A stretch of 64,000 nucleotides of DNA from an uncultured Gammaproteobacteria bacterium (GCA_964408485.1 CAYOZJ010000004.1:8685-72684); one strand, 5' to 3'. Positions 5,285 through 54,975 are shown, counted from the stretch's first letter. Translations and numbers: made by a program. The notes: generated by a model from the letters alone, not told the origin.

Positions 5285-7780
5285 CTATAAATCAAATCGT
5301 TTATAGAACCACAGTTTCTCCAGTTCGACGAAAAGCAAATATAACCCAACTTCTCCAAAGACAATGATAAGAAAAAGAATAGGAAGTTTGGTAAATTCAA
5401 ACACTGAGCGAATTGGTAGGAAAAGGAAAAGAAATCCTGCAACAATTGTTAGCAATGCGCTGATAACAAGTGGAATACCAGGTTTGCTCTTAAAAAATGG
5501 TACAACCTGAGTCCTGATGGCAAAAACAATAATTGTTTCCGTAACTATTGACTCAATAAACCATCCTGTTCTAAAAACTTCTGCTGTTGCATGAAATCCA
5601 AATAGAAGAATTGCAAAAGTGAGCAAGTCAAACAGCGAACTCATTGGAGCAAAAACAATCAAAAAGCGTTTCAGAAAATTCATATTCCATTCTCTTGGTT
5701 TGAGGATAAGATGTTTGTCTACATTGTCATTGGGAACAGTAATTTGTGACACATCATACAAAAAATTGATAAGAAGTATTTGGATGGGGAGAAGAGGGAG
5801 AAATGGTAAGAAAATAGACGCAACTGCAACAGTCATCATGTTGCCAAAGTTGCTCGACAAACTCATCATGATATATTTAAAGCTATTGGCATAGGTTTTT
5901 CTTCCCTCCACAATCCCATGTGTTATTGCAAGTAAGCTTTTTCGCATTAAGATAATATCTGCAACTTCCTTTGCAATGTCAGATCCATTATTTACGGATA
6001 TTCCAACATCAGCCGATTTTAGAGGAGGTGCATCATTAATGCCGTCTCCAAGATATCCTACAACATGCTTTCTCTTTCGAAGTGCTTTTATAATTTGTGA
6101 TTTTTGTTCAGGGGTAAGATGAGAAAAAATAGATATTTTCTCGACCTGGTTTTCCAATTCTTCTGTGGAGATGTTTGTAATTTGCTCGCCTGTTAATGAT
6201 GCATCAGCAGGAATACTTGCTTCCTCGCATACTTTTCTTGTTACGGCGTCGTTATCGCCTGTTAAGATTTTTATATCTACACCCAGTTTATAAAGTTCAG
6301 TAATCGTTTCCCGTACGCCAATTTTTACTGGATCGTGAAAAGTAATAAACCCAGCATAAATGAGGTCTTTTTCATCAGCAGGATCATAGGAGTTTTTCTT
6401 CTGTATTGTTTTGTATGCAACAGCAATAAGTCTATCTCCAGAATTATTTATTTTTTCTATTTTTTTAATGATTGCATCTTTATGTACCGTTGTCATTGTA
6501 TGAGTTTTATTTCCAATATAGTGACAATGATCTAAAATATTTTTTGCAGCACCTTTTGTGATAAGAAGCACTTGTTTATCTTTTTCAACAATTGCACTCA
6601 CTCTCTTTCTATCAAAATCGAAGGGGATCTCATCAATCTTTTTGTATGAAGCGATATCAATTGCCTTAGAAAAATCCAAAAGCGAAATATCAATAGGATT
6701 TTTAAAACCTGACTGGAAATGTGCATTTACTTTTGCGAGTGCCAAAATATTTTCATCCTTTTCTCCACTGCTGTTTTCAAAATTGTTTACTGTTATAACA
6801 CTTTCTGTTAATGTTCCTGTTTTGTCCGTACATAAAATATCCATGCTTCCTAAATTTTGGATGCTTGGTAAATACTTAACAATAACATCATGCTTGTCCA
6901 TCCGTATTGCGCCGTTAGAAAGTGTGACTGTTATGACAAGAGGCATAAGATCTGGGGTTAATCCTACAGCAAGTGCGACAGTAAACAGTAAGGAAAGTAA
7001 AAAATCATGATGGAGTAATACGTTGATTCCAAAGACAAAGAGACTTAAGGCTAAGACAAGCCACAAGATAAGAATACTAAATGATCGAATACCCCTGTCA
7101 AAGGAGGTTGCAGGTTTTTCGATAACGATTGTTTGGGAAAGAAGTCCTATTTTTGTTTTCTTGCCAATGGCAATAACTTTCCCTATGCCCTCTCCCGTTA
7201 CTACTTGCGTTCCTGCAAAAGCTTGCATTTGCGTCCCTTTATTTTTTGTATCTTTTTTCTCAGGATATGATTCACCGGTAAGCGTTGATTGATTAATAGA
7301 TAATTCTTTTGTTTCCAGAAGTTCAAGGTCTGCAGGAACAATATCGCCAACAGATAGAAAAACAATGTCACCAATTGTTACTTCAGAAAATGGAATTTCA
7401 CTATGTTTTCCGTCTCGAATAACTGATGCCTGAAGAAGTACCTTCTTTTTTAATGCCTCTGCTGCATGATCGGCTTTAAAGTGTTGGAAAAAAGTAATAC
7501 ATCCACTTGCAACAACAATAAAAAAAATAATTGCAAAATCAATGCGGTTACCAAGAAAAAGCGAAATAAAACTGGCGAAAAGCAAAATCGCTGTCAAAGG
7601 GCCAAAGAAACTGTTCCACAGTTGTTTGAGTATATAGAATCTGCTTCTCCCAGCAAGGGTATTAGTGCCATATTGCTTCAGTCGTTGAATTGCTTCTTTT
7701 TCCGATAGCCCTGTTATTTTTTCGTCCATACTAGTAGTATAGGTGGAGAATTGGGTATTGACCAGCGGTTTAGGAAGCAA
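5285..7780 (-). CDS. P-type cation-transporting ATPase, MgtA-like (type IIIB/II). Alternative start at 7729 (MDEKITGLSEKEA).
   Basis: DKTGTLT phosphorylation motif, TGDN, GDGINDAPPLKSADVGISV and TGES actuator motif. N-terminus TGLSEKEAxxRLxxYGxNxL is typical of MgtA-like pumps. Confidence 0.85.
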   Translation of the reverse strand: MLPKPLVNTQFSTYTTSMDEKITGLSEKEAIQRLKQYGTNTLAGRSRFYILKQLWNSFFGPLTAILLFASFISLFLGNRIDFAIIFFIVVASGCITFFQHFKADHAAEALKKKVLLQASVIRDGKHSEIPFSEVTIGDIVFLSVGDIVPADLELLETKELSINQSTLTGESYPEKKDTKNKGTQMQAFAGTQVVTGEGIGKVIAIGKKTKIGLLSQTIVIEKPATSFDRGIRSFSILILWLVLALSLFVFGINVLLHHDFLLSLLFTVALAVGLTPDLMPLVITVTLSNGAIRMDKHDVIVKYLPSIQNLGSMDILCTDKTGTLTESVITVNNFENSSGEKDENILALAKVNAHFQSGFKNPIDISLLDFSKAIDIASYKKIDEIPFDFDRKRVSAIVEKDKQVLLITKGAAKNILDHCHYIGNKTHTMTTVHKDAIIKKIEKINNSGDRLIAVAYKTIQKKNSYDPADEKDLIYAGFITFHDPVKIGVRETITELYKLGVDIKILTGDNDAVTRKVCEEASIPADASLTGEQITNISTEELENQVEKISIFSHLTPEQKSQIIKALRKRKHVVGYLGDGINDAPPLKSADVGISVNNGSDIAKEVADIILMRKSLLAITHGIVEGRKTYANSFKYIMMSLSSNFGNMMTVAVASIFLPFLPLLPIQILLINFLYDVSQITVPNDNVDKHLILKPREWNMNFLKRFLIVFAPMSSLFDLLTFAILLFGFHATAEVFRTGWFIESIVTETIIVFAIRTQVVPFFKSKPGIPLVISALLTIVAGFLFLFLPIRSVFEFTKLPILFLIIVFGEVGLYLLFVELEKLWFYKRFDL

Positions 7781-8759
7781 TCGTTGAGCGTACTTTCTTG
7801 AGTTTTGCTACAAAAAAACCTTCCATATTTTTACTTGGATAAATTCGAAGTGTCTTGGAAAGCCGGGGATCAAATAGTCTATTTTTGTATTTCGTTAACC
7901 CAGTATTGTGCTCCAAGCCTTCGATATGAATATCCTCAACTTCTAATGCGTCACCCTCTTTTTTAAGAATCCAATTAACTACTTCTTCATTTTCTTCAGG
8001 TGAAAGCGTACAAGTGGAATAGACAATTGTTCCGCCGACTCGTGTTGCACTTACTGCAGATCGAAGAAGCCATTTTTGCATTTCTGAGAGCATTTTCACT
8101 TTTCCTGGTGTCCAGTCTTTGTATGTTTTGGGATCTTCGGTATAAAATCTTCCTTCCATACTGCAGGGTACATCTACCAAGACTCTGTCAAAGTATTCTG
8201 GATATTTTTTCCATAAAAATTCTCCGGGCAAATTGAGAATCTGTGTATTAGTTACTCCTTGAAGTTGTATATTAGCTGACAGTCTAAAATTGCGTATTCT
8301 GGATTTATCATTGGCAATAAGAATTCCTTTATTGTGCATGAGGGCTGCAATTTGCGTTGTTTTGCTTCCTGGAGCTGCTGTTGCATCCAAAACAATGTCG
8401 TCCTCTTGTGGATCTAGTACAAGTGGGGGAATCATGCTGGAAAGACTTTGGATATACAGACACCCTTCTTTATAGAATGTGGTTTCTGCAAGTGTTTTTT
8501 GAGGTACGTTTTGCAGAATAAATGCGTCTTTGTACCAACTAACGCGTTTTGTCTCTATTCCAAGATCTAATAATTTCTTTTCCAGCTGGTCTGCCGAGAT
8601 TTTTATCGTGTTAGCGCGAAAGGTAGAGGGCTTGCGGGTAGTAAATGATTCTAAGACTTCCTGTTTTTCACTTGCCTTGCCGGCAGGCAGGTCTTCAGGT
8701 AAAAAACTATCTAGTTTTTCTAAGAATTTTTCAGGAAGCACGTCCCAAGGTTGATTCAT
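7770..8759 (-). CDS. rsmF: RsmF/RsmB-family rRNA (cytosine-C5)-methyltransferase. The listed ORF runs to 8942, but alignment to RsmF supports the ATG at 8759 (MNQPWDVLPEKF).
   Basis: RANTIKIS, LYIQSLSSMIPP, LDATAAPGSKTTQI, DVPCSMEG, IVYSTCTLSPEENE and EGFFVAKLKK match E. coli RsmF blocks in order. The upstream 180 nt is occupied by a repeat element. Confidence 0.85.
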   Translation of the reverse strand: MNQPWDVLPEKFLEKLDSFLPEDLPAGKASEKQEVLESFTTRKPSTFRANTIKISADQLEKKLLDLGIETKRVSWYKDAFILQNVPQKTLAETTFYKEGCLYIQSLSSMIPPLVLDPQEDDIVLDATAAPGSKTTQIAALMHNKGILIANDKSRIRNFRLSANIQLQGVTNTQILNLPGEFLWKKYPEYFDRVLVDVPCSMEGRFYTEDPKTYKDWTPGKVKMLSEMQKWLLRSAVSATRVGGTIVYSTCTLSPEENEEVVNWILKKEGDALEVEDIHIEGLEHNTGLTKYKNRLFDPRLSKTLRIYPSKNMEGFFVAKLKKVRSTIAS

Positions 8760-8788
8760 TTGATGATTATAGCACGAAGCAGTCAACA

Positions 8789-8914
8789 GTCTACCCAATT
8801 TCAGGTGACGCTCACAATCAAGTTCGCTAAGTGAAATTTGATTACCAGCTAAAAATAAACCGTATACACTTTCTGCAATCAAATTCCAATTCACCTGAGA
8901 ATTGGGAATAGCCT
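8789..8914. repeat. Copy 1 of a ~126-nt dispersed element (family E) with inverted termini CCCAATTTCAGGTGA ... TCACCTGAGAATTGGG. Second copy at 29662-29788.
   Basis: Blocks GTCTACCCAATTTCAGG(T/A)TGACGCTC, GTTCGCTAAGTGAAATTT and TTCAATTCACCTGAGAATTGGGA(A/G)TAGCCT are shared by both copies. The central part diverges. Confidence 0.6.
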
Positions 8915-8991
8915 GCTGCCTACTCACAAAACAGCAGAACAATGAGCATACATAACTTCACCCATTTCGATATTTGAATTTGGGGTTTGAT

Positions 8992-9068
8992 TAAAAATTT
9001 CAAATCGCCGCTTCGGGGAAGCTGACACCTCGGGGAGGATAATCCCGAGTCGGGAAGTACCCTTGGGG
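8992..9068 (+). repeat. GC-rich repeat family B (core CGCCGCTTCGG(G/C)GAAGCT..GTACCCTTGGGGT), long variant with an internal hairpin. An inverted long copy lies at 16778-16855.
   Basis: Near-identical 70-nt sequence found in reverse complement at 16778-16855. Shorter versions at 15727-15770, 41162-41200 and 35443-35480 (reverse). Confidence 0.55.
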
Positions 9069-9105
9069 TAAGAAATTTAAAATTCCACTATGATATAGTG
9101 GATAT

Positions 9106-9999
9106 ATGTTCCTCTTTGGTAAAAAGATAGCTCACAAACAAGTTAGCCACTTCGAGTCGCTTTCAGAAAAATGGACAGCGCGGCATAGGAGTTTACAGGA
9201 AAAGCTTTGGGAAAAGCATGCCAGGGCTCTTGAGCATCTAAAAAACAAAACAAAGCAATTTGCTGCAGGGTCTTTGGCAGCGGCTATGCTTATTGCGTCT
9301 CCTGGTGCAGCACTATCGACTGCTACTCCTCACACTGTAAAGGAAGTACATTTTAAAGATTTAGATACAGAGACAACCTTTCTTTTAACGCTTGGTTCTC
9401 TTGTTCCGAAAGAGGTACGCCCACTTACACAAGATGAGGAAAGTCATATTGGAAAGATTTTATCAGACCAACTAGGAGCAACGGTGAGTGCAGAGCTAGA
9501 AGGAATTCGTCTCAATCGTTCCTATGGATATATTGGTCAAGAGCAGCATTTAGCCCGTTACAAGGGAGACTCTATGGATACCCATTTCGCATCGGGAGAA
9601 GATGCGCAAAAATATTATGACTATGGCATGGCGCCTGGACTTGGTGCGTATGGATATTTTGCAAAGTCAGGTAATATGACAAAACTTGAAAGTGACCGTG
9701 AAAAATACTACATTGCAGTACAGACATTTTTAGCCCCAGGTTATTTGGAAAATACTAAAAAAATGAATGAGTTTTTTGCATTTCATAAAATGCTCGTTGT
9801 GAATCCGGAAAATGGAAAAGCAATTGTTGCAGATATTGGTGATAGTGGGCCTTCTGAATGGACAGGGAAATCTCTTGGTGGGTCTCCTGAGGTTATGCAC
9901 TACTTAGAGCGAGTTGATGGTGCACAAAAAGGGCCAGTTATTTATATGTTTATCGATGATCCACATGATAAAATTCCATTAGGGCCAGTACAGCTCTAA
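9106..9999 (+). CDS. Hypothetical membrane-anchored protein. The C-terminal region resembles an RlpA-like double-psi beta-barrel (DPBB/3D) domain.
   Basis: N-terminal hydrophobic segment AAGSLAAAMLIASPGAAL. C-terminal VVNPENGKAIVADIGDSGPS..SLGGSPEVMHYL fits the loose RlpA/3D pattern V.N..NG..v...i.D.GP....dlS. Confidence 0.45.
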   Translation: MFLFGKKIAHKQVSHFESLSEKWTARHRSLQEKLWEKHARALEHLKNKTKQFAAGSLAAAMLIASPGAALSTATPHTVKEVHFKDLDTETTFLLTLGSLVPKEVRPLTQDEESHIGKILSDQLGATVSAELEGIRLNRSYGYIGQEQHLARYKGDSMDTHFASGEDAQKYYDYGMAPGLGAYGYFAKSGNMTKLESDREKYYIAVQTFLAPGYLENTKKMNEFFAFHKMLVVNPENGKAIVADIGDSGPSEWTGKSLGGSPEVMHYLERVDGAQKGPVIYMFIDDPHDKIPLGPVQL

Positions 10000-14056: not shown

Positions 14057-14638
14057 ATGAATCTGCAAACTCTTCTGGTAATTCTCAGTTCTATTTTGGT
14101 TACAGTGGGACCCATTACCTATGCGGTAAGCATTATTAAAGGATCAACACGACCTCACCGTATGACGCGATTTATTCTCGCGTTTGTTTTGACATTGAAT
14201 TTTGTTAGCATCCTTGCAGCAAAGAGCAATCTCGGAGCAGAAGTATTCGCAGGAATTACTTGTATTCAGTCGCTCGCCATTTTTGCATTGAGTCTCTGGA
14301 AAGGTATGGGAGGAACAACTAAATTTGATTGGGTATGTTTAGGTATTGCGCTAATTGGATTAGTTGGTTGGAAAATAACAGGGGATCCCCTTTTAGGTGT
14401 TTGGTTTTCTGTTTTGGCAGATTTTGTTGCATATTTACCTGCATTTGTTAAGACATATTACCATCCTCATACAGAATCTCCTTGGTATTATTTGTTGAGT
14501 GGTTTGGCAGCGCTAATTAGTTTAGTGGCATATAAAATAGAATCAGCGTCAATATTTCAAATATATATACTTCTGTGTGTCATTATTATGACTATACTTA
14601 TCTATAGGAAGGATATTAAAAGAAAGTTTAGTTTATAA
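14057..14638 (+). CDS. Hypothetical 6-TM membrane protein
   Basis: Hydrophobic helices only. Confidence 0.4.
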   Translation: MNLQTLLVILSSILVTVGPITYAVSIIKGSTRPHRMTRFILAFVLTLNFVSILAAKSNLGAEVFAGITCIQSLAIFALSLWKGMGGTTKFDWVCLGIALIGLVGWKITGDPLLGVWFSVLADFVAYLPAFVKTYYHPHTESPWYYLLSGLAALISLVAYKIESASIFQIYILLCVIIMTILIYRKDIKRKFSL

Positions 14639-16762
14639 ATATTTTTTTACTTCCAGTTTATAGTCCTTTATTTTAAATTTTTTCCTCAGTTGGGCAATAG
14701 GAAGTGTAAGATACTGTTTTGCTAATTTTTGAGACTCTCTTTCATATTCTTTTGCGAGGGTTTTATATTTTCCAATACCTTTTTTTATAATTTTATCTTC
14801 CTGCTGTAATACGTCAACATAAAGAAGAAATTTTCCCAACCCTTTTTTCTGAAAATCTGACATGGATACGGGGTTGATGCGAATACTGGAGAATTTTTTT
14901 GAAAAAGTAAGACGATGCCTAAATGTTGCCACATTTTTTTCAAGAATTTCTTTGTCCTTTGCCAGAGATTGGTCGGGAAGTCCAAAGCTGTCAAACAGAA
15001 GAGAAAGAAAGAGTCGTTTTGTCCTGTCAATCATGCTTCCACCCATTTCGTCTTTTTCCGGAACAGCCACTCCCATAATTTCTGCTTGTTCACGAGCAAT
15101 ACTTGGCAATGCGCAGGAGATTGCTGCAATATATGTTTGGAGTGCTATCTTTTCATCTTCATGGACTCTTTTTTTGGCTCTTTGAAAAAGTTGCATAAAT
15201 TCCTTGGCACGGTCACTAAATCCATCAATCAAATGCCCAGCTGTATCTGGTATTACGTATTTAGTATTAAGTATATTTTGAGATTTTTCATCCATTCCAC
15301 TTTGTTCAGGATTCGAGATGACAGGATTTTCTTTACGCTTAACGCTTAACGCTTTACGCTGTCTTGCTCTAATCCCATCTAAGACATCGGTAAGATTGCC
15401 AAATGTATAGTGATACCAGCCTTTTGTTTTAGTAATAACGGATTTGTCATTAAGTTGTTTGAGTCCGAGAGAAAGTTTATTGAGTCCCAAAACAGAAATT
15501 TCATTTGGAGAAAGATTTTTATCAACGAGTCGATCTAAAGCCCATTCAAATTTACGAATAACATTTCGCGCTTTATTATTTTGTGCTGGTGTGAATTGCG
15601 ATTGTTTTATTGCTAAATTGTTAAATTGTTGAGATTGCTTCGCTTCAGTTCCTTCGCTCGCAATGACGGAAGTATTGTTGTTTGAGCTTGTCGAGAACCT
15701 TTGGCTTTCTTTTACGCTTGACGCTTGACGCGCCGCTTCGGCAAAGCTAGTACCCTTGGGGTGCTTTACCCTTAATTCCGGTCTGAGTGTCCATAAAATT
15801 TCCTTTGGTCCGTCTCCTTCGAGAATATGAATACTATTATTGTCTTTCATTTTTTCTTTGAGCATCTCGCGTGCAAGTGGTGTTGGATGGACGCCGTATT
15901 GAGAAAGAGTATAAGAGGTTGGGTCCTCCTTCATGGTAAGCATTGGAATATCAACAGTTGCATCGCCAAAAAGAAATGCATGGATACGCTTGTCATTGCG
16001 AGGAGTCGAAGGCGACGTGGCAATCTCATTAGATTGCTTCGCTTTGTTCGTAATGACATTTTCAGAACCAGAATGGCGATTGAGTTCGATCGCCAAATTT
16101 TTTAATACATACTGCACAGCTTTGTCTTTCCCTGCAGTACTTGGGGTAATAAGTAATTCTCCTGAGAATGTTTCTAGTGAGTTTTTCCATAACAACTTTT
16201 CTGTAAGAATAATGCGAATACCCTTTGGGAATAACTTGAGAACTTCCCTGCGAATAGCATCTACTTGTTTGAGTGGATACGTATTGAGTCTAATGCGTAT
16301 TAAATAGGTATTGCCTCTTCCCAAACGAAACATAAGACCATTGCTTTGTAAATACTGTGTGATGCCATCAGTTATTTCCGCTTTATTCCATGAACTAACA
16401 TTGCCTTGTGCATCAGTTACTTTTGTTGACTGCATAGTCCCTTGCCATGAAAAATCACTGATATATCCGTTTCGTGTCGCGAAGTAAATAATCGTCCCAT
16501 TTGCCGTGATAACAGCATCTGGCTTGGGTACGCCAAGAAGCTTTAAGTGATACTTATCAATCCGTCGCCAAAAAGATCGGCCAGTGACAATAATAAAAGG
16601 GATGCATTTTGCAGAAATATACGCTGCTGTTTGTAAATTAAAGAGAGGTGCAGTAAGAAGGTTAAGGTTGGGGCTAAAAAGCGTGCCATCAATATCGGTA
16701 AGCAACATCGTGGGTTTGTCTTGCTTTTCGAGTTTGGTTAAAATTATATCTGTATCAGACAT
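14633..16762 (-). CDS. 709-aa protein. N-terminal HAD-IIB sugar-phosphate phosphatase domain (SPP/MPGP-like), then a ~400-aa region of unknown function. The linker region passes through several GC-rich repeat elements in frame.
   Basis: HAD motif I LLTDIDGTLF, motif II IVTGRS, motif III lysine in AGKDKAVQYV and motif IV FGDATVDIPML. Repeat-derived segments RVKHPKGTSFAEAARQ, VIASEGTEAKQSQ and RKALSVKRK appear in the translation. Confidence 0.6.
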   Translation of the reverse strand: MSDTDIILTKLEKQDKPTMLLTDIDGTLFSPNLNLLTAPLFNLQTAAYISAKCIPFIIVTGRSFWRRIDKYHLKLLGVPKPDAVITANGTIIYFATRNGYISDFSWQGTMQSTKVTDAQGNVSSWNKAEITDGITQYLQSNGLMFRLGRGNTYLIRIRLNTYPLKQVDAIRREVLKLFPKGIRIILTEKLLWKNSLETFSGELLITPSTAGKDKAVQYVLKNLAIELNRHSGSENVITNKAKQSNEIATSPSTPRNDKRIHAFLFGDATVDIPMLTMKEDPTSYTLSQYGVHPTPLAREMLKEKMKDNNSIHILEGDGPKEILWTLRPELRVKHPKGTSFAEAARQASSVKESQRFSTSSNNNTSVIASEGTEAKQSQQFNNLAIKQSQFTPAQNNKARNVIRKFEWALDRLVDKNLSPNEISVLGLNKLSLGLKQLNDKSVITKTKGWYHYTFGNLTDVLDGIRARQRKALSVKRKENPVISNPEQSGMDEKSQNILNTKYVIPDTAGHLIDGFSDRAKEFMQLFQRAKKRVHEDEKIALQTYIAAISCALPSIAREQAEIMGVAVPEKDEMGGSMIDRTKRLFLSLLFDSFGLPDQSLAKDKEILEKNVATFRHRLTFSKKFSSIRINPVSMSDFQKKGLGKFLLYVDVLQQEDKIIKKGIGKYKTLAKEYERESQKLAKQYLTLPIAQLRKKFKIKDYKLEVKKYL
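15636..15770. repeat. Cluster of repeat fragments inside the same CDS: family A half-site 15636-15675, family D ACGCTTGACGCTTGACGC and family B 15727-15770
   Basis: Matches to copies at 18980-19012, 16853-16920 and 41162-41200, seen directly. Confidence 0.5.
16005..16070. repeat. 66-nt imperfect palindrome (family A: GTCATTGCGAG...GCAATCTC/ATTAGATTGC...CGTAATGAC) inserted in frame in the HAD domain. It encodes VITNKAKQSNEIATSPSTPRND between HAD motifs III and IV.
   Basis: The two halves are reverse complements. 66 nt equals 22 codons with no stop in the coding frame. Confidence 0.6.
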
Positions 16763-16777: not shown

Positions 16778-16855
16778 TAAGGGGAAAGTACCCCAAGGGT
16801 ACTTCCCGACTCGGGATTATCCTCCCCGAGGTGTCAGCTTCCCCGAAGCGGCGCG
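16778..16855 (-). repeat. Inverted copy of the family B long repeat, followed by family D (CGTAAAGCGTTAAG...TTGACGCTTAACGCT) up to ~16920
   Basis: Reverse complement of 8992-9068 with only a few mismatches. Confidence 0.55.
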
Positions 16856-16957
16856 TAAAGCGTTAAGTTTATAAAGAACTTTTATCTTTACCCTTAACCT
16901 TTGACGCTTAACGCTATTCTCATTGTACCAAAAAATACAACGTGGTATTATATTTTT

Positions 16958-21903: not shown

Positions 21904-22335
21904 ATGCCCAGAAAGAAACCAGAATTTGCAGAGGAGGTAGAAGAAAAATTTGAAGAGGTTTGGGATAAGAGAAAGATAATTGCAGGGATTTTTGTTTTAC
22001 TTCTTTTTATTGCTGGTGGTGTGATTGGGAAGCGAATACTTTTTCATGAATCTCTTGCTCCTGAGTCTTTCATTCCTACCTTCCCAAGCGTTAAGGGGAT
22101 AAGTACATTCAATGCGCCGGATGCAGCATCTCATGTAAAAATCTCACTTCCTTCTCAAGAAGACGTTACAAATCAACTTCATACTATTCAGACACAAGTA
22201 ACAAATTTAAATGTATCGGATATTGCTTCATCTAGTCCACAGGTGCAGCAAATCTTAAAGCAAATTGAAAATCTTCCATCAGGACCAGAAGGACAAGTAA
22301 AAGCAGCATGTATGAGGTTATGCAATAATCTTTGA
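21904..22335 (+). CDS. Hypothetical single-TM protein
   Basis: Charged N-terminus, one TM helix, Ser/Gln-rich tail. Confidence 0.4.
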   Translation: MPRKKPEFAEEVEEKFEEVWDKRKIIAGIFVLLLFIAGGVIGKRILFHESLAPESFIPTFPSVKGISTFNAPDAASHVKISLPSQEDVTNQLHTIQTQVTNLNVSDIASSSPQVQQILKQIENLPSGPEGQVKAACMRLCNNL

Positions 22336-22349
22336 TAGAATTAAGAAGT

Positions 22350-22739
22350 ATGAGTCAAGAATCAAGGAAGATAAAATCTTTTACTGACTTAACGGTTTGG
22401 CAACAAGGTCATACTTTTGTTTTGCAAATATATAAAATAACCCGAGAATTTCCTAAGGAAGAATTGTTTGGGTTAACAAATCAGATTCGTAGAGCATCAG
22501 TTTCTTTTACATCTAATATTGCTGAAGGTTTTAGCAGGAATTCATATAAAGAAAAGGTTCAATTTTATTCAATATCATTGGGTTCACTTACCGAAGTTCA
22601 GAATCAACTATTGATTGCAAAAGACTTGGGTTATGTATCCAAAGATATTTTTTCTTCTTTAGCGAATTTGACAGTAGATTTAAGTAAAATGATAAATGGC
22701 TTAATTAAGAAATCAAAAACCTTAATTCCTAATTCTTAA
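22350..22739 (+). CDS. Four-helix-bundle protein (TIGR02436-type, 23S rRNA intervening-sequence protein family)
   Basis: FTDLTVWQQGH..., LTNQIRRASVSFTSNIAEGFSR and SLGSLTEVQNQLLIAKDLGYV match the family consensus. Confidence 0.75.
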   Translation: MSQESRKIKSFTDLTVWQQGHTFVLQIYKITREFPKEELFGLTNQIRRASVSFTSNIAEGFSRNSYKEKVQFYSISLGSLTEVQNQLLIAKDLGYVSKDIFSSLANLTVDLSKMINGLIKKSKTLIPNS

Positions 22740-28791: not shown

Positions 28792-29631
28792 ATGTTGCAC
28801 ATTCGGCCAGTCACAGAAAAAGATGCTTCAGAGCAAACTCGCGTTGCTTACGAGGATATTAAAAAAACATTCAATATTCATTTTGTCCCGCTTCTTTTCC
28901 AATATATAGCGGGATTTGAAGAGTACTTTCTGTATGTTTGGGAGAAAATAAAAACCAATTTAGAGAGTGAATACTATATAAAGAGTACTGCTGAGCTTAT
29001 CCAACTTTCTCAAAAAAGTATTCACACCATCTATAAAGAGTCTCGGGAGATGTCTCAATCTATTCATGGAATGCATAGTGCAGAAAGGCAGCATATTATG
29101 CAGACAGCGCAGGAGTTGCAAATTCTTAATGCGAAATTACTTTTACTAACGATTGGACTGCGGGAAGGGGTAAAAGGGGTTATTGTTGGAGAGCAAGTAT
29201 TGCCTGATGTAGCACATGAAGAAACAGTTTTTGATCCGTTTATTAATGAAAAAATTATGCATGCAAATGTGAAGCAACAAGAAAAAGACATTGCTCCGGC
29301 AAGCAAAATGCTTGCTCCACTTTTTGGTGCTCAGTCACTTGTTGTGAGTAAATATCCTGAATTTTTTTCACGAGTTGCCGCGGAAATGGACGAGCTGACA
29401 AAATCCGAAAAATATTTACATGAGCGGGTTGTTATGGAGCAGCATACACTCGAAAAGTCGCTTCATTTAACACATCCCTTGGGGTGTACCTATGCGGAAA
29501 TTGCCAGATTTGCAGGGAAGAGGCCCTACTTTAGCGAACTTTTGTATATTTTGGCAGAAACATTTCCAACCCAATTCCCCAGACTTCTCCTTACCTCGAG
29601 TGTCATGGAAAAAGTTTTAAGCAGTAATTAA
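28792..29631 (+). CDS. Hypothetical 279-aa soluble protein
   Basis: No motif recognised. A TACAATAG box lies 8 nt upstream of the ATG. Confidence 0.45.
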   Translation: MLHIRPVTEKDASEQTRVAYEDIKKTFNIHFVPLLFQYIAGFEEYFLYVWEKIKTNLESEYYIKSTAELIQLSQKSIHTIYKESREMSQSIHGMHSAERQHIMQTAQELQILNAKLLLLTIGLREGVKGVIVGEQVLPDVAHEETVFDPFINEKIMHANVKQQEKDIAPASKMLAPLFGAQSLVVSKYPEFFSRVAAEMDELTKSEKYLHERVVMEQHTLEKSLHLTHPLGCTYAEIARFAGKRPYFSELLYILAETFPTQFPRLLLTSSVMEKVLSSN

Positions 29632-29661
29632 GGTGCGGTTATTTAATAGTGCTTGTTAGTA

Positions 29662-29788
29662 GTCTACCCAATTTCAGGATGACGCTCGCTACGGGTTCGC
29701 TAAGTGAAATTTAACACCATATCGCATTCATATAATCTCATGGTTTTCTGCATTAAATTTCAATTCACCTGAGAATTGGGAGTAGCCT
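29662..29788. repeat. Copy 2 of the ~126-nt family E element
   Basis: Shares both terminal blocks and the GTTCGCTAAGTGAAATTT block with 8789-8914. Confidence 0.6.
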
Positions 29789-29885
29789 ACTAATTTCTTT
29801 CTTAATTCTTACTTCTTGATTCATAATTCTCCCCGTAGGGTTGCGTAGCAACATAAAATATGCTTTACTAAATTGAGTATTCATT

Positions 29886-30335
29886 ATGGAAGAAAAAGGC
29901 ACCACATCGGTATTTCACTCACTCACTAATAGGAAATCTGTTAATGGAAGATTTCTACTCGTTAGTCTTGTTGTTGTTATTGCAGGATTTGTTGGTGGAT
30001 ACTTTTTAGTAAGCCTGCAAAGTGCGGCAAGTGTTGCGACCCAATCTGGCACAGCCGTTAACAAATCAAACCTGCAAAAAGGTGCTGCATATGGATCTGA
30101 TGACACAAAGACTTTTAAAGATACCGTAGAAGGACAAGTTGCAACAGGTGGAGTAAATGGGGAAGGACAATTTCATTTAGTCCGTCCTGGTGGAGATAGT
30201 CAGAATGTTTATATGACATCTAGCTTAGTTGATTTATCTCTTTTTGTTGGAAAAAAAGTAAAAGTGTGGGGACAAACCCAAAAAGCCCAAACTGCTGGTT
30301 GGCTTATGGATGTAGGACGGGTTGAAGTTGAATAA
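29886..30335 (+). CDS. Hypothetical signal-anchored protein immediately upstream of ftsE
   Basis: Single N-terminal TM, Gly/Thr-rich extracellular region. Confidence 0.4.
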   Translation: MEEKGTTSVFHSLTNRKSVNGRFLLVSLVVVIAGFVGGYFLVSLQSAASVATQSGTAVNKSNLQKGAAYGSDDTKTFKDTVEGQVATGGVNGEGQFHLVRPGGDSQNVYMTSSLVDLSLFVGKKVKVWGQTQKAQTAGWLMDVGRVEVE

Positions 30336-33395: not shown

Positions 33396-34256
33396 ATGAA
33401 GGGTAAAATACTCCAAAGATTTTCTGTCGTGATTTTTTGTGCAGTTGTTTTCTTTACAATACACGCACTTGTACTCGCTGCATCTTTCTCTCTACAAAGT
33501 AATCAATCAGCAATTGGTACAGGTGATGAATATACTGTGAATGCAACACTTTCTATTAGTGCATCAGATGGGACACAGTATTTTCTTCGCGGAGTATTTT
33601 ATCAACCAGGAACATCTAACTACTGCGGCTATACATACAATGGATCATCCTACTACAACGGGCCATATACAACAAATAATGGGTGGCAAAATGTTTTGCC
33701 AATAACAGTCCAAAATAGTAGTTGGAGTGGTACATTAAAAGCAAAAATTGACTCGTCAGATAGTGGGTGTCAGTCGTCCGGTACGTATAATTTTAAAATT
33801 CAACGGTTTACGACATCGGGAAGCGGAACATTTGATAATCAGAATGAGCAAACAATTTCTGTAATAATTCCAACACCAACGCCAACGAATAGTCCAACAT
33901 CAATTCCTGCTGCAACGAGTACCCCTGTTCCAACGACCAAAATTACCTCTTCACCAACCCCGATTAAATCGGGGCCAACACCAAAGCCAACACTAACCCC
34001 CTTCCCGACAGTTCTTTCTGCAAGCACTTCGAGTCAGACAGATGATTCAGGCTTGTCCACAGAAAATACGCCTACAGGAGAGGGACTTGTTGCTGGAATA
34101 AGTGATGAGAGAAAGCCACTTGGTGGCTTTAATCCATTTGCTATTGCGCTTATTGTTATAGGAGTTGGAATCATTCTTACCTGTGGTATACTATTTTTTC
34201 GAGAATGGAAAAAGTCTCGGTTAAGAAAGGACACAGATGAAGTTACACACGAATAG
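33396..34256 (+). CDS. Cell-surface protein: signal peptide, ~150-aa globular domain, Pro/Thr-rich linker, C-terminal TM anchor with basic tail
   Basis: PTPTPTNSPTSIPAATSTPVPTTKITSSPTPIKSGPTPKPTLTP linker, then IALIVIGVGIILTCGILFF and KKSRLRK. Confidence 0.5.
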   Translation: MKGKILQRFSVVIFCAVVFFTIHALVLAASFSLQSNQSAIGTGDEYTVNATLSISASDGTQYFLRGVFYQPGTSNYCGYTYNGSSYYNGPYTTNNGWQNVLPITVQNSSWSGTLKAKIDSSDSGCQSSGTYNFKIQRFTTSGSGTFDNQNEQTISVIIPTPTPTNSPTSIPAATSTPVPTTKITSSPTPIKSGPTPKPTLTPFPTVLSASTSSQTDDSGLSTENTPTGEGLVAGISDERKPLGGFNPFAIALIVIGVGIILTCGILFFREWKKSRLRKDTDEVTHE

Positions 34257-34725
34257 TGCGTTGGAAACGCAAAAAACAGGTGCGGAATTTGCAAAACAAC
34301 TCCGTGGTGGAGATGTTGTTTTATTATATGGGGAATTAGGTGCGGGGAAAACAACATTTACCCAAGGAGTGGCATATGGACTTGGCATTGAAAGGCGAAT
34401 TATTTCTCCAACGTTTATTATTGTGAGAAAGTATGAAGTACCCAGTGTCATTCTGGGGAACGTAGTGACTCCAGAATCTGGTTCAAGAATAGATTCTGGA
34501 CAAGCCAGAATGACGGTTAAAACCCTCTACCACATAGATCTTTATAGAACTCAAACAGATGATGATTTAAAGGGATTAGGGTTACAAGAAATATTAGAAG
34601 AAAAAGATGCAATTGTTGTTATTGAGTGGCCAGAAAAATTGGGTTCTCTTTTCCCAAAGAAAGCATGGGAAGTAAAGTTTGTTGATGACCAGCACGATGA
34701 AAGGGATGTTACAATAGAGAAATAA
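34237..34725 (+). CDS. tsaE: tRNA t6A37 biosynthesis ATPase TsaE (YjeE) carrying an in-frame ~23-aa insertion encoded by a palindromic repeat
   Basis: P-loop YGELGAGKTTF, SPTF and YHIDLYR motifs. The insertion is SVILGNVVTPESGSRIDSGQARM, between SPTF...Y and YHIDLYR. Confidence 0.85.
   Translation: MKLHTNSALETQKTGAEFAKQLRGGDVVLLYGELGAGKTTFTQGVAYGLGIERRIISPTFIIVRKYEVPSVILGNVVTPESGSRIDSGQARMTVKTLYHIDLYRTQTDDDLKGLGLQEILEEKDAIVVIEWPEKLGSLFPKKAWEVKFVDDQHDERDVTIEK
34447..34515. repeat. 69-nt palindrome (family C: GTCATTCTGG...CCAGAATCTGG/..TCTGGACAAGCCAGAATGAC) inside tsaE
   Basis: Arms are reverse complements. Related copies at 38283-38342, 54608-54640 and 54917-54960. Confidence 0.6.
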
Positions 34726-38281: not shown

Positions 38282-38350
38282 TGTCATTCTGGCTTGTCCA
38301 GAATCTAGATCCTGGATGCACTACGCTTACCAGGATGACTGTTTAAAATT

Positions 38351-41085: not shown

Positions 41086-41161
41086 GAATAATTTCTCAGT
41101 TGTCAGTTCTCAATTTTCATTGAATTGAATAATGATCATTGAATCATTTATTGAAAACTGG

Positions 41162-41200
41162 AAATCGCCGCTTCGGCGAAGCTAGTACCCTTGGGGTAGT
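41162..41200 (+). repeat. Family B short repeat (AATCGCCGCTTCGGCGAAGCTAGTACCCTTGGGGTAG), 18 nt upstream of the ugd ATG
   Basis: Matches 15727-15770 and the core of 8992-9068. Confidence 0.5.
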
Positions 41201-41217
41201 AAATTGAAAACATCATT

Positions 41218-42528
41218 ATGACTATAACATTTCTTGGACATGGTTATGTAGGGTTAGTAACAGCAGCAGTTTTTGCCGATCTTGGCAATAAAGTGTGGGT
41301 TATTGGTCACACAAAAGAAAAAATTGAAAACCTTAAAAATGGTATTCTCCCAATCTATGAACCAGGACTTGAAGAATTGGTTGTTCGTAACGTAAAAGCA
41401 GGACGTCTCTTATTTACTCTTGATTACAAACCAGCAATTCCAGAATCAGACGTTGTCTTTATTGCGGTAGGTACACCACCGAAGCCAACAGGAGAAGCAG
41501 ATTTATCTGTTGTTTTTGAGGTTGCAGAAAAAATTGGTCAAAATTTAGATGGATATACAGTTGTTATAACAAAAAGCACTGTGCCAGTTGGGACAAATAA
41601 AAAGGTTGGGGAGATTTTGGCAAAAGTAAAACCTGCTAAGGCTGAATTTGATATTGCATCCTGTCCGGAATTTTTGCGGGAAGGTCAGGCAATTGGAGAC
41701 ACCCAGCATCCCGATAGAGTTGTTATTGGAGCAGATAGTAAGCGAGCAGAAGAGAAATTAGTTGAGCTCCATAAGCCAATTTTAGAGGGAAATGGAAAAT
41801 CAAAATTAGTTTTAACAAATATTTCTACAGCAGAAATGATTAAGTATGCATCGAATGCATTTTTAGCAACAAAGATTAGTTTTGCTAATGCAATTGCCCA
41901 ACTCTCTGAAAAAGTCGGTGCAGATGGTCCAGACGTCCTTACGGCAATTGGGCTTGATAAACGAATTGGAACATACTTCTTAAATGCAGGAGCAGGATAT
42001 GGTGGAAGCTGCTTTCCAAAAGATGTAAAAGCACTTATTGCAATAGCCGGAGAAAATGGATATGACTTTAAGCTCTTAAAAGATGTTGAGGAAGTAAATA
42101 AAGAAGCAATGCATGCTGTTGCAAAAAAAGTTAAAAAACTTCTTGGAGATGTAAAAGGAAAGCGAGTCGGCGTATTGGGTCTTACCTTTAAGCCGGATAC
42201 CGATGACATGCGCGATGCGCCAAGCAGGACAGTCTTGCCGGAGCTCTTAAAAGATGGGGCAAGTGTGGTCGCATTTGATCCTATTGCAACGAATGCAAAT
42301 AAGAAATTTCCAGAATTAGCAGGACTGGAAATGGCAAAAGATGCATACGATGTTGCAAAAAACGCGGATATTTTAGTTGTTATGACAGAATGGAACGAAT
42401 TTAAGCAAATGGATGTTGAGAAAATAAAATCGCTCATGAAATCCCCAGTAGTTGTTGATGGACGAAATATGTTTGACGCAAAGCAAATGCGTTCTCTTGG
42501 ATTTACCTATGTTGGTGTTGGAAGATAA
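41218..42528 (+). CDS. ugd: UDP-glucose 6-dehydrogenase
   Basis: GHGYVGL NAD-binding, catalytic GGSCFPKD and the C-terminal UDP-binding domain. Confidence 0.9.
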   Translation: MTITFLGHGYVGLVTAAVFADLGNKVWVIGHTKEKIENLKNGILPIYEPGLEELVVRNVKAGRLLFTLDYKPAIPESDVVFIAVGTPPKPTGEADLSVVFEVAEKIGQNLDGYTVVITKSTVPVGTNKKVGEILAKVKPAKAEFDIASCPEFLREGQAIGDTQHPDRVVIGADSKRAEEKLVELHKPILEGNGKSKLVLTNISTAEMIKYASNAFLATKISFANAIAQLSEKVGADGPDVLTAIGLDKRIGTYFLNAGAGYGGSCFPKDVKALIAIAGENGYDFKLLKDVEEVNKEAMHAVAKKVKKLLGDVKGKRVGVLGLTFKPDTDDMRDAPSRTVLPELLKDGASVVAFDPIATNANKKFPELAGLEMAKDAYDVAKNADILVVMTEWNEFKQMDVEKIKSLMKSPVVVDGRNMFDAKQMRSLGFTYVGVGR

Positions 42529-54640: not shown

Positions 54641-54937
54641 ATGAAACAAGGTTTTGTTTACATAATGGCTAACGATAAACCAGTTATATACACTGGGGTA
54701 ACAAGTAATTTGATTCAAAGGGTTCATCAGCATAAAAATCATTTGGTTCAAGGATTCACTTCAAAATATAATCTTCATAAACTTGTTTACTACGAAACTT
54801 TAAATACTATAGAGAGCGCTATTACTAGAGAGAAACAAATTAAGGATATGGATAGAAAGGATAAATTACTTATGATTGAAAAATTGAACCCTGATTTTAA
54901 AGACTTGTATGGAGAGATTCTGGACAAGCCAGAATGA
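54641..54937 (+). CDS. GIY-YIG nuclease superfamily protein (98 aa), flanked on both sides by family C palindromic repeats
   Basis: FVYIMANDKPVIYTGVTSNLIQRVHQH GIY-YIG core. Repeats at 54608-54640 and 54917-54960. Confidence 0.75.
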   Translation: MKQGFVYIMANDKPVIYTGVTSNLIQRVHQHKNHLVQGFTSKYNLHKLVYYETLNTIESAITREKQIKDMDRKDKLLMIEKLNPDFKDLYGEILDKPE

Positions 54938-54975
54938 CAGAACGCTCAGGCAAGATTTGTTTACGCTTTTCGCTT

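Follow-up and report, generated by a model that had tools for sequence, protein, structure and literature searches.

A multi-copy intergenic repeat with a compensated three-helix fold, present or absent at the same sites in related Patescibacteria genomes

The window (i.e., the whole stretch of 64,000 nucleotides analysed here) has a GC content of 37.6%, and its proteins are closest to those of metagenome-assembled genomes (MAGs) of Patescibacteria (CPR). Those MAGs are labelled 'Patescibacteria group', 'Candidatus Levyibacteriota' or 'Saccharimonadales', and one close relative is deposited as 'Candidatus Eisenbacteria'. Two intergenic regions of the window contain copies of the same element, both on the + strand. 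Copy A is located between divergent genes, namely an RsmF-type methyltransferase gene starting at 8759 (-) and a 297-aa gene starting at 9106 (+); copy B follows a DehI-like gene that ends at 29631 and precedes a 149-aa gene whose start is at 29886. This intergenic placing agrees with the earlier note on this DNA. The parts of the two copies are as follows, where P1, P2 and P3 are the helices of the conserved fold and R1 and R2 are two covariance models.

8779..8923 (+): copy A, the whole repeat including the outer stem; 144.6 bits with R1 and 145.7 bits with R2; ortholog L018
8779..8808 (+): copy A, 5' arm of P1, consisting of outer stem GCAGTCAACAG and then basal stem CTACCCAATTTCAGGTGA; pairs with 8891-8923
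8810..8827 (+): copy A, P2 hairpin, G-C-[UC]-A-C / loop / G-U-[UC]-G-C
8832..8888 (+): copy A, P3; 8832-8842 paired with 8878-8888, hypervariable tip at 8843-8877
8891..8923 (+): copy A, 3' arm of P1, TCACCTGAGAATTGGGAATAG and CTGCTGCCTAC, with conserved bulges
29656..29793 (+): copy B, the whole repeat, outer stem TTAGTAG / CTACTAA; 135.0 bits with R1 and 130.7 bits with R2; ortholog L004
29684..29700 (+): copy B, P2 hairpin GCUCGC-UACGG-GUUCGC, with G·U at pair 42/51
29705..29762 (+): copy B, P3; 29705-29714 paired with 29752-29762, variable tip at 29715-29751

The two copies had been reported at 8789-8914 and 29662-29788, sharing a 5', an internal and a 3' block, and these blocks are indeed identical in both. 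The sequence AGTCTACCCAATTTCAGG occupies 8788-8805 and 29661-29678, GTTCGCTAAGTGAAATTT begins at 8822 and 29695, and CACCTGAGAATTGGG is found at 8892 and 29766. AGTCTACCCAATTTCAGG has two matches in the window and the 18-mer of GTTCGCTAAGTGAAATTT likewise occurs twice, a result given by 0 of 100 dinucleotide shuffles for AGTCTACCCAATTTCAGG and by 0 of 100 shuffles for GTTCGCTAAGTGAAATTT. The copies are thus real, but the reported length of about 126 nt falls short: the element extends over 8779-8923 and 29656-29793, because the outer stem differs in sequence between the copies and yet keeps its pairing. The outer stem of copy A (GCAGTCAACAG/CTGCTGCCTAC) is different in sequence from that of copy B, and its variant GCAGTCARCAG is common only to the ortholog L018. 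Searches with R1 and R2 detect no third copy in the 64-kb window, which therefore contains exactly two.

All 14 distinct copies of the family fold as one three-helix hairpin consisting of P1, P2 and P3. P1 is the closing stem of ~27 pairs, in line with the pairing of the termini that had been proposed, and gives each copy a long hairpin. Its irregularities are conserved: a U·C mismatch, a two-base bulge (AA/AG) and a one-base bulge on the 3' arm; the 5' arm has a one-base bulge of its own. P2 has the form G-Y-[UC]-R-C / 5-6-nt loop / G-Y-[UC]-R-C; its internal loop, UC/UC (GA/GA when read on the opposite strand), is conserved. Just before P2 stands an unpaired C that belongs to a conserved UGACG, and an unpaired GACG/CGTC motif adjoins the hairpin. 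P3 is a 10-pair helix carrying a 35-nt tip, whose identity is 29-56% between subfamilies and 65-88% within a subfamily. The centre of the element, described as diverging, does vary, but it is not structureless, as it holds the P2 hairpin and the P3 helix; only the P2 loop and the ~35-nt P3 tip are free to vary. The fold z-scores are -4.5 (+ strand) and -4.9 (- strand) for copy A, and -3.0 (+) and -3.4 (-) for copy B. The hairpin forms on either strand, the - strand being more stable in 10 of 13 copies through a few A·C positions only.

Compensatory changes between copies, which the earlier note had suggested looking for, are present: 13 of the 41 pairs are changed on both sides. In a model-guided alignment of 14 sequences, standard pairs fill 95.6% of 568 cells, a level reached by 0 of 500 shuffles, and pairing drops to 25-43% when partners are slid by 1-3 columns, these values being drawn from a small, phylogenetically narrow set of related sequences (effective number ~1.7) and from an alignment fitted to the model. 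Covariation is seen in 2 of the 4 pairs of P2 (U-A with C-G at 39/54; G-C with A-U and G·U at 42/51), and helix 3 is 99.3% paired with compensatory changes in three of its pairs. The most distant copy, L055, has its basal stem rewritten with compensation (CAATTTAAAG / TTTTAAATTG, CAACTG pairing with CAGTTG), and its junction, P2 and base of P3 are almost unchanged in sequence. The conserved interior of the repeat is ATGACGYTCGCTCCANGYTCACTAAA.

Further copies had also been called for, and they were found: the family is multi-copy and dispersed, with 14 distinct copies in at least four related genomes or metagenome populations. When an exact 18-mer of the 3' arm was scanned over 185,579 species representatives (GTDB, one genome per species), MAG DASQJJ01 gave seven full copies, and the other matches were chance matches in coding DNA. 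A two-arm pattern scan of JGI metagenomes gave 11 full copies in rhizosphere samples, mostly from one population, among which four are new variants (L020, L022, L025 and L030). A diverged copy was detected with a covariance model in the more distant MAG GCA_025450795.1 (L055 13066-13216); it scores 71 bits with R1 and 107 bits with R2, L055 being among the training sequences of R2. Viral contigs scanned with both arms gave only chance matches that the covariance model rejected, and BLAST against plasmid and phage collections gave no match. The Rfam search, a further suggestion, placed the element in no known RNA family: the whole window has 0 Rfam matches at gathering thresholds, and a permissive search with copy A and L017 gave only chance-level miRNA, snoRNA and ssnA matches far below threshold.

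These results bear on the null explanation that the two copies are the remnant of a segmental duplication without further significance. The presence of only two copies in 64 kb would be compatible with it. However, twelve further distinct copies occupy unrelated loci in other genomes, the flanks are unrelated up to the element ends, and the fold is conserved with compensation. Further copies and compensatory changes together refute the remnant, whose probability is practically negligible, and support a dispersed multi-copy family with pairing ends and a variable middle.

The positional orthologs of copies A and B in DASQJJ01 are L018 and L004, respectively. Coding DNA of the window and of DASQJJ01 is ~73% identical, and the basal stems of orthologous copies are 92-98% identical, amid intergenic DNA that cannot be aligned. 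Both sites are filled in these two genomes and empty in ten other relatives, so that each shows insertion polymorphism among related genomes. Site A is empty in six relatives with spacers of 52-63 nt (L031, L032/33, L034, L039, L040 and L041), and site B is empty in four (L035-L038); the empty-site spacers as a whole are 33-63 nt long, except for one of 190 nt. In a neighbour-joining tree of RsmF, the sister of the window is L039 and that of DASQJJ01 is L031 (88-91% amino-acid identity). As these sister lineages lack the element, site A requires either a single insertion with two clean losses or two insertions at one and the same nucleotide. A 13-nt junction, AAGCAGTCARCAG, and the unusual outer stem are common to both site-A copies and favour their common descent, whereas the ancestral-looking empty promoter in the sister L031 favours independent insertion or precise excision.

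Within the DASQJJ01 lineage, recent copying is evident from three subfamilies that have near-identical members at unrelated loci (L004 with L008/L022, L012 with L017, and L001 with L018). The interior of L018 matches its paralog L001 and not its ortholog copy A, suggesting recent copying or conversion. In L007 and L012, the duplicated block exceeds the element and comprises a REP hairpin, the element and ~45 nt; some of the spread may therefore be recombination of mosaic repeat blocks rather than transposition. In L018 (4911-5052, DASQJJ01), a 117-nt GC-rich insert lies beside the copy-A ortholog and is followed, 117 nt downstream, by an inverted 25-nt fragment (AAATTGGGTAGACTGGTGGTTGC) from the 5' arm of the element; the spacer with the divergent promoters at site A is a hot spot that has taken several insertions. 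L008 (513-666) and L022 (8994-9147), from one soil population, have the rmuC flank and the element in common and different genes after the element, and a third contig, L023, begins at the element. Either the assembly was broken or mis-joined at near-identical copies, or a real rearrangement has occurred at the repeat.

Size, palindromic ends, intergenic place, copy number and presence/absence polymorphism all resemble those of miniature inverted-repeat elements (MITEs), and the element had been called MITE-like. The term holds insofar as the element is non-coding, non-autonomous, polymorphic and copied, but it does not hold in the sense of a classical element with terminal inverted repeats (TIRs) and target-site duplications, i.e., one derived from an insertion sequence (IS) whose DDE transposase binds the TIRs and duplicates the target. 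Conservation is lowest in the outermost 11 nt of each arm (identity of 38-57% in the most divergent pairs, e.g., copy B or L001 versus the rest), which change in a compensating manner, and highest at the interior junction; the distant L055 has other termini and the same interior. Conservation of the interior over the termini is the opposite of what a TIR-bearing transposon shows and argues against a classical TIR-type MITE. Target-site duplications, which had been proposed as a check, are absent both from the filled/empty junction (L018 versus L031) and from the flank alignments. The flanks contain no fixed target motif, and an exact tetra- or pentanucleotide target was rejected, as they give only a loose pyrimidine-rich 5' flank with YTTYCTT in 5-8 copies. 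No parent IS with the element's ends was found among the 185,579 species representatives, in which the exact 3'-arm 18-mer occurs only inside full elements, and no transposase was found in the window ORFs scanned. An origin as a TIR-type MITE is accordingly very doubtful.

The other proposal of the earlier note, a family of small RNAs, would make the copies independently transcribed, trans-acting structured sRNAs with a closing stem and with a P2 loop and P3 tip specific to each copy. The three-way-junction fold with covariation, the conserved junction and the variable loops would suit such RNAs, as would the greater conservation of the interior than of the termini in L055 and the few G·U pairs on the + strand (P2 42/51 in copy B and L055; 32/124 in L055). 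However, the flanks of the copies share no conserved upstream promoter or downstream terminator, and the window contains no match to the variable segments apart from the other copy. The wobble cells, one ambiguous column being left out, number 6 G·U on the + strand and 6 A·C (i.e., G·U on the - strand), and thus favour neither strand. Orientation is unrelated to context, as all four orientation classes relative to neighbouring genes occur: divergent (copy A/L018, L008), co-directional sense (copy B/L004, L012, L020), co-directional antisense (L001/L030, L007, L022) and convergent (L017, L055). Together with the polymorphism of the sites among close relatives and the lack of any Rfam relative, these results leave trans-acting sRNAs quite improbable. 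An sRNA gene is not supported as a class either, as no promoter or terminator is shared at a conserved distance and no strand is used consistently, and a guide RNA was rejected, as the variable segments have no other matches in the window.

Rather than acting in trans, the element might serve the host as a cis-acting structural RNA, i.e., an mRNA stabiliser, an RNase III site, or a transcription insulator or terminator between operons. Proposals for REP and ERIC elements include roles of the mRNA-stabiliser, RNase III and terminator type. Most copies are flanked by housekeeping genes in unidirectional or convergent arrangement, often at 12-80 nt from the preceding stop codon, the neighbours including rplT/pheS, rpsL-rpsG, guaA/rpsF-ssb, fmt, pheT and rmuC. 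A hairpin that forms on either strand would work in both orientations, T-rich runs follow some copies (copy B, L008, L025 and L001), and the basal stem is conserved beyond coding DNA between orthologous copies. On the other hand, 2-3 of ~10 loci lie in divergent promoter regions (site A, L008, and perhaps L025, whose short contig shows one gene start). Both predicted promoters at site A read away from the element, so copy A is probably untranscribed, and L008 likewise lies between divergent genes. The compact element-free spacers of the ten relatives at the same two sites indicate that the element is dispensable. A terminator scan gave none at copy B and one internal, chance-level site at copy A, and selection for a plain hairpin would leave the conserved bulges, the UC/UC loop and the junction sequence unexplained. 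A cis-acting RNA is thus rather unlikely. Overall, the orientation, flank and strand results fit neither an independent sRNA gene nor an orientation-dependent cis-regulator.

At site A, one end of the element overlaps a predicted promoter.

8766..8793 (-): putative promoter of the leaderless RsmF-type gene, a consensus match only; start codon at 8759

It consists of a -35 box TAGACT, which is the element's own 5' end, a 16-nt spacer and a TG-extended TATAAT that ends 7 nt before the RsmF-type start codon. The ortholog L018 has the same arrangement, and the element-free L031 has CAGACA-16-TGcTATAAT at the same place. By these matches, the promoter of a leaderless gene seems to take its -35 box from the element end. 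Several genes in the window (8759, 9106 and 29886) and at the orthologous sites in L031-L041 are seemingly leaderless, with a TG-extended -10 box whose end lies 6-7 nt ahead of the start codon; divergent gene pairs have back-to-back promoters within 52-63-nt spacers. The public RsmF-type protein of 385 aa (7770-8942, -) begins upstream of the element and reads through it. As the orthologs are 322-329 aa long and begin at the MNQPW position (ATG at 8759), its 56-aa N-terminal extension is an annotation artefact created by the repeat.

A mobilising enzyme was sought both in the window and near copies elsewhere. No transposase, recombinase, integrase or HUH domain was found in 60 of the 69 window ORFs of at least 80 aa, the other nine, of 81-143 aa, being outside the domain scan and in a size range that includes IS200/IS605-type HUH transposases. 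Neither a transposase nor an integrase lies next to copies elsewhere, within flanks of at most 10 kb, and no gene for a RAYT (Y1 HUH transposase), which REP repeats usually flank, was found in the 64-kb window or in the flanks of up to 10 kb that were read.

Short hairpins of the form (C/T)GTC-ATTCTGG-loop-CCAGAAT also occur in the genomes that carry the element. They match CGTC-tagged REPs as defined in the literature, with a CGTC/TGTC tag, AT at the start of the stem and a loop of 4-5 nt (Di Nocera et al., 2013, PMC3733652). In the window, they occur at the following places.

34447-34514: REP-like hairpins GTCATTCTGG-loop-CCAGAAT, an inverted doublet (34447/34505)
38283-38339: the same, an inverted doublet (38283/38330)
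54915-54939: the same, a single hairpin (54929)

The 34447/34505 doublet lies inside the tsaE reading frame (ORF 34237-34725), in which Pfam matches TsaE in two separate stretches, suggesting an in-frame intragenic repeat insertion. A REP hairpin is located ~10 nt 5' of the element in L007, L012, L008/L022 and L025, and at the P2/P1 junction the element's minus strand reads CGTCAYCCTGA, the same head as that of the co-resident REPs. The shared head and the adjacency hint at a common trans-acting factor.

REPs are 20-40 nt long, and REPINs are inverted doublets of two REPs mobilised by RAYTs (Bertels and Rainey, 2011, PMC3116915; Di Nocera et al., 2013, PMC3733652). The element resembles them in its place among housekeeping genes, in the absence of target duplication and, if the tag is indeed what is bound, in recognition of a hairpin with a short unpaired tag: its unpaired GACG/CGTC lies beside a hairpin, and the decamer GTCAYCCTGA is common to it and to the co-resident CGTC/TGTC REPs. 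Unlike REPs, its arms are not self-palindromic and the tag is inside a large hairpin, not outside. Membership in REPs or REPINs was rejected, as these have a 5' unpaired GTAG/CGTC tag on a short palindrome and the element's minus-strand CGTC stands beside P2, 5' of the P1 3' arm. The copy number, at least seven per MAG, is also far below that of typical REPIN populations.

Other known systems show partial resemblance. The ERIC/IRU repeats of Enterobacteria and Vibrio, treated by Hulton et al. in 1991 and in later work, are reportedly imperfect palindromes of ~127 bp. They share with the element their size class, a long bulged imperfect-palindrome hairpin, an intergenic place (often within operons and in either orientation), a low-to-moderate copy number, the lack of coding capacity, an unusually high conservation between species and the absence of a known transposase. 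The likeness is architectural only. ERIC is not known to be similar in sequence to the element, which differs in its host phylum (Patescibacteria), three-helix architecture, conserved junction, hypervariable tip and co-varying outer stem. The Correia element of Neisseria (NEMIS) has conserved 26-nt TIRs and a TA target duplication, unlike the element, whose termini vary and at which no target duplication is seen. Correia, RUP, BOX, RPE and bcr1 elements are likewise non-autonomous and 100-160 bp long, can donate promoter elements to adjacent genes, form mRNA hairpins and occur in mosaic, repeat-rich intergenic regions.

The attC sites of integrons, such as the 123-126-nt VCRs of Vibrio, are recognised as folded single strands, have core sites RYYYAAC / GTTRRRY and stand in cassette arrays beside intI. 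Conserved extrahelical bases in the basal stem, a variable terminal structure and a structure more conserved than the sequence are common to attC and the element. However, the element lacks both cores, its copies stand singly, 21 kb apart and among housekeeping genes, and no integrase domain was found in the window ORFs scanned. An attC site was therefore rejected, no core sites being present in the flanks. Several other candidates were discarded as well. For a box C/D or K-turn (AGGAUGA ... CUGA), the bases are Watson-Crick paired and the key position of the 'C box' is G, A or absent. For a hammerhead or another self-cleaving ribozyme, no known core is present, the junction strands being just C, UAAR and AU. 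The template/variable repeat of a diversity-generating retroelement (DGR) does not fit differences that are not adenine-specific and two copies that are intergenic. An internal sigma-70 promoter (TGAC-16/17-TAAATG) has a second hexamer without the invariant T6 and was not called by the scan, and a small ORF does not fit the 1-2-nt indels and compensating stem changes between copies, which leave no frame conserved.

The window contains other repeats. A second, GC-rich family, CGCCGCTTCGGCGAAGCT-AGTACCCTTGGGGT, forms two small hairpins at 9006-9070 and 16789-16853, and is also found at 8987-9093, 15731-15786 and 41147-41221. Two copies, 7.7 kb apart and inverted relative to each other, show 100% identity along 65 nt, and a 32-nt palindromic insert, GACACCTCGGGGAGGATAATCCCGAGTCGGGA, is nested in both and missing from the other two copies. 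One copy is 80 nt from copy A and one is inside a 709-aa ORF (14633-16762). Around and inside this ORF, which is HAD-like, and beside the GC-rich repeats, a short tandem-like motif, CTTTACGCTTAACGCTTAACGCT, occurs at 15331-15353, 15710-15732 and 16886-16908. At 22332-22739 (+), a gene encodes a 135-aa 23S rRNA intervening-sequence or bAvd-like four-helix-bundle protein (PF05635, E = 1.7e-39). Relatives of this protein have an accessory role in diversity-generating retroelements; the window showed no reverse transcriptase.

The best explanation, to which a probability of roughly 0.55 is given, is that the element is a dispersed, non-coding, non-autonomous palindromic repeat of ~145 bp, like REP/REPIN, ERIC, Correia and RPE repeats, that propagates as a DNA hairpin and lives in Levybacteria-like Patescibacteria of soil and rhizosphere, a narrow clade. 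Each copy can extrude or fold into the three-helix hairpin, and would be recognised by its fold and internal motif, not by terminal inverted-repeat sequence. Gain, conversion and loss may proceed via a DNA hairpin, single-stranded or cruciform, on which a structure-specific enzyme encoded elsewhere acts in trans; a RAYT or an IS200/IS605-type HUH transposase is the obvious candidate for this enzyme. An inserted copy would mostly be neutral baggage between genes, with occasional co-option possible, as at 8766-8793.

A decaying selfish insert would be less conserved than the basal stems at orthologous sites, with their 92-98% identity, which points to selection at the host level, gene conversion between copies, or site-specific insertion that recurred. 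In this respect, a tentative and rather improbable alternative is that the element is a selected structure-specific module, in which a dedicated protein recognises the conserved junction (GACG tag, UC/UC or GA/GA loop, and fixed bulges). If true, it would explain why the basal stem is so conserved amid unalignable intergenic DNA. One form of it is a long-term partnership like that of REPINs and RAYTs, which is not known from Patescibacteria, with their reduced genomes; the other is a functional three-way-junction RNA or DNA hairpin whose hypervariable loops carry copy-specific information.

Under the preferred reading as a dispersed palindromic repeat, the family is new, while its kind (dispersed palindromic intergenic repeats such as REP/REPIN, ERIC and Correia) is well known. 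No description of dispersed palindromic repeats or MITEs in Patescibacteria was found in the literature searched. The family establishes no new principle, and offers a clean, small test case of repeat conservation by structure and not by terminal sequence. Such repeats inflate public gene calls, as in the RsmF-type protein (385 aa versus 322-329 aa), seem to break metagenome assemblies at their copies, and can rewire promoters, as the predicted -35 box of a leaderless gene would illustrate. Patescibacteria genomes are very small and tightly packed, as in the spacers of ~50 nt at the empty sites, and their lineages still carry and exchange selfish or semi-domesticated hairpin repeats.
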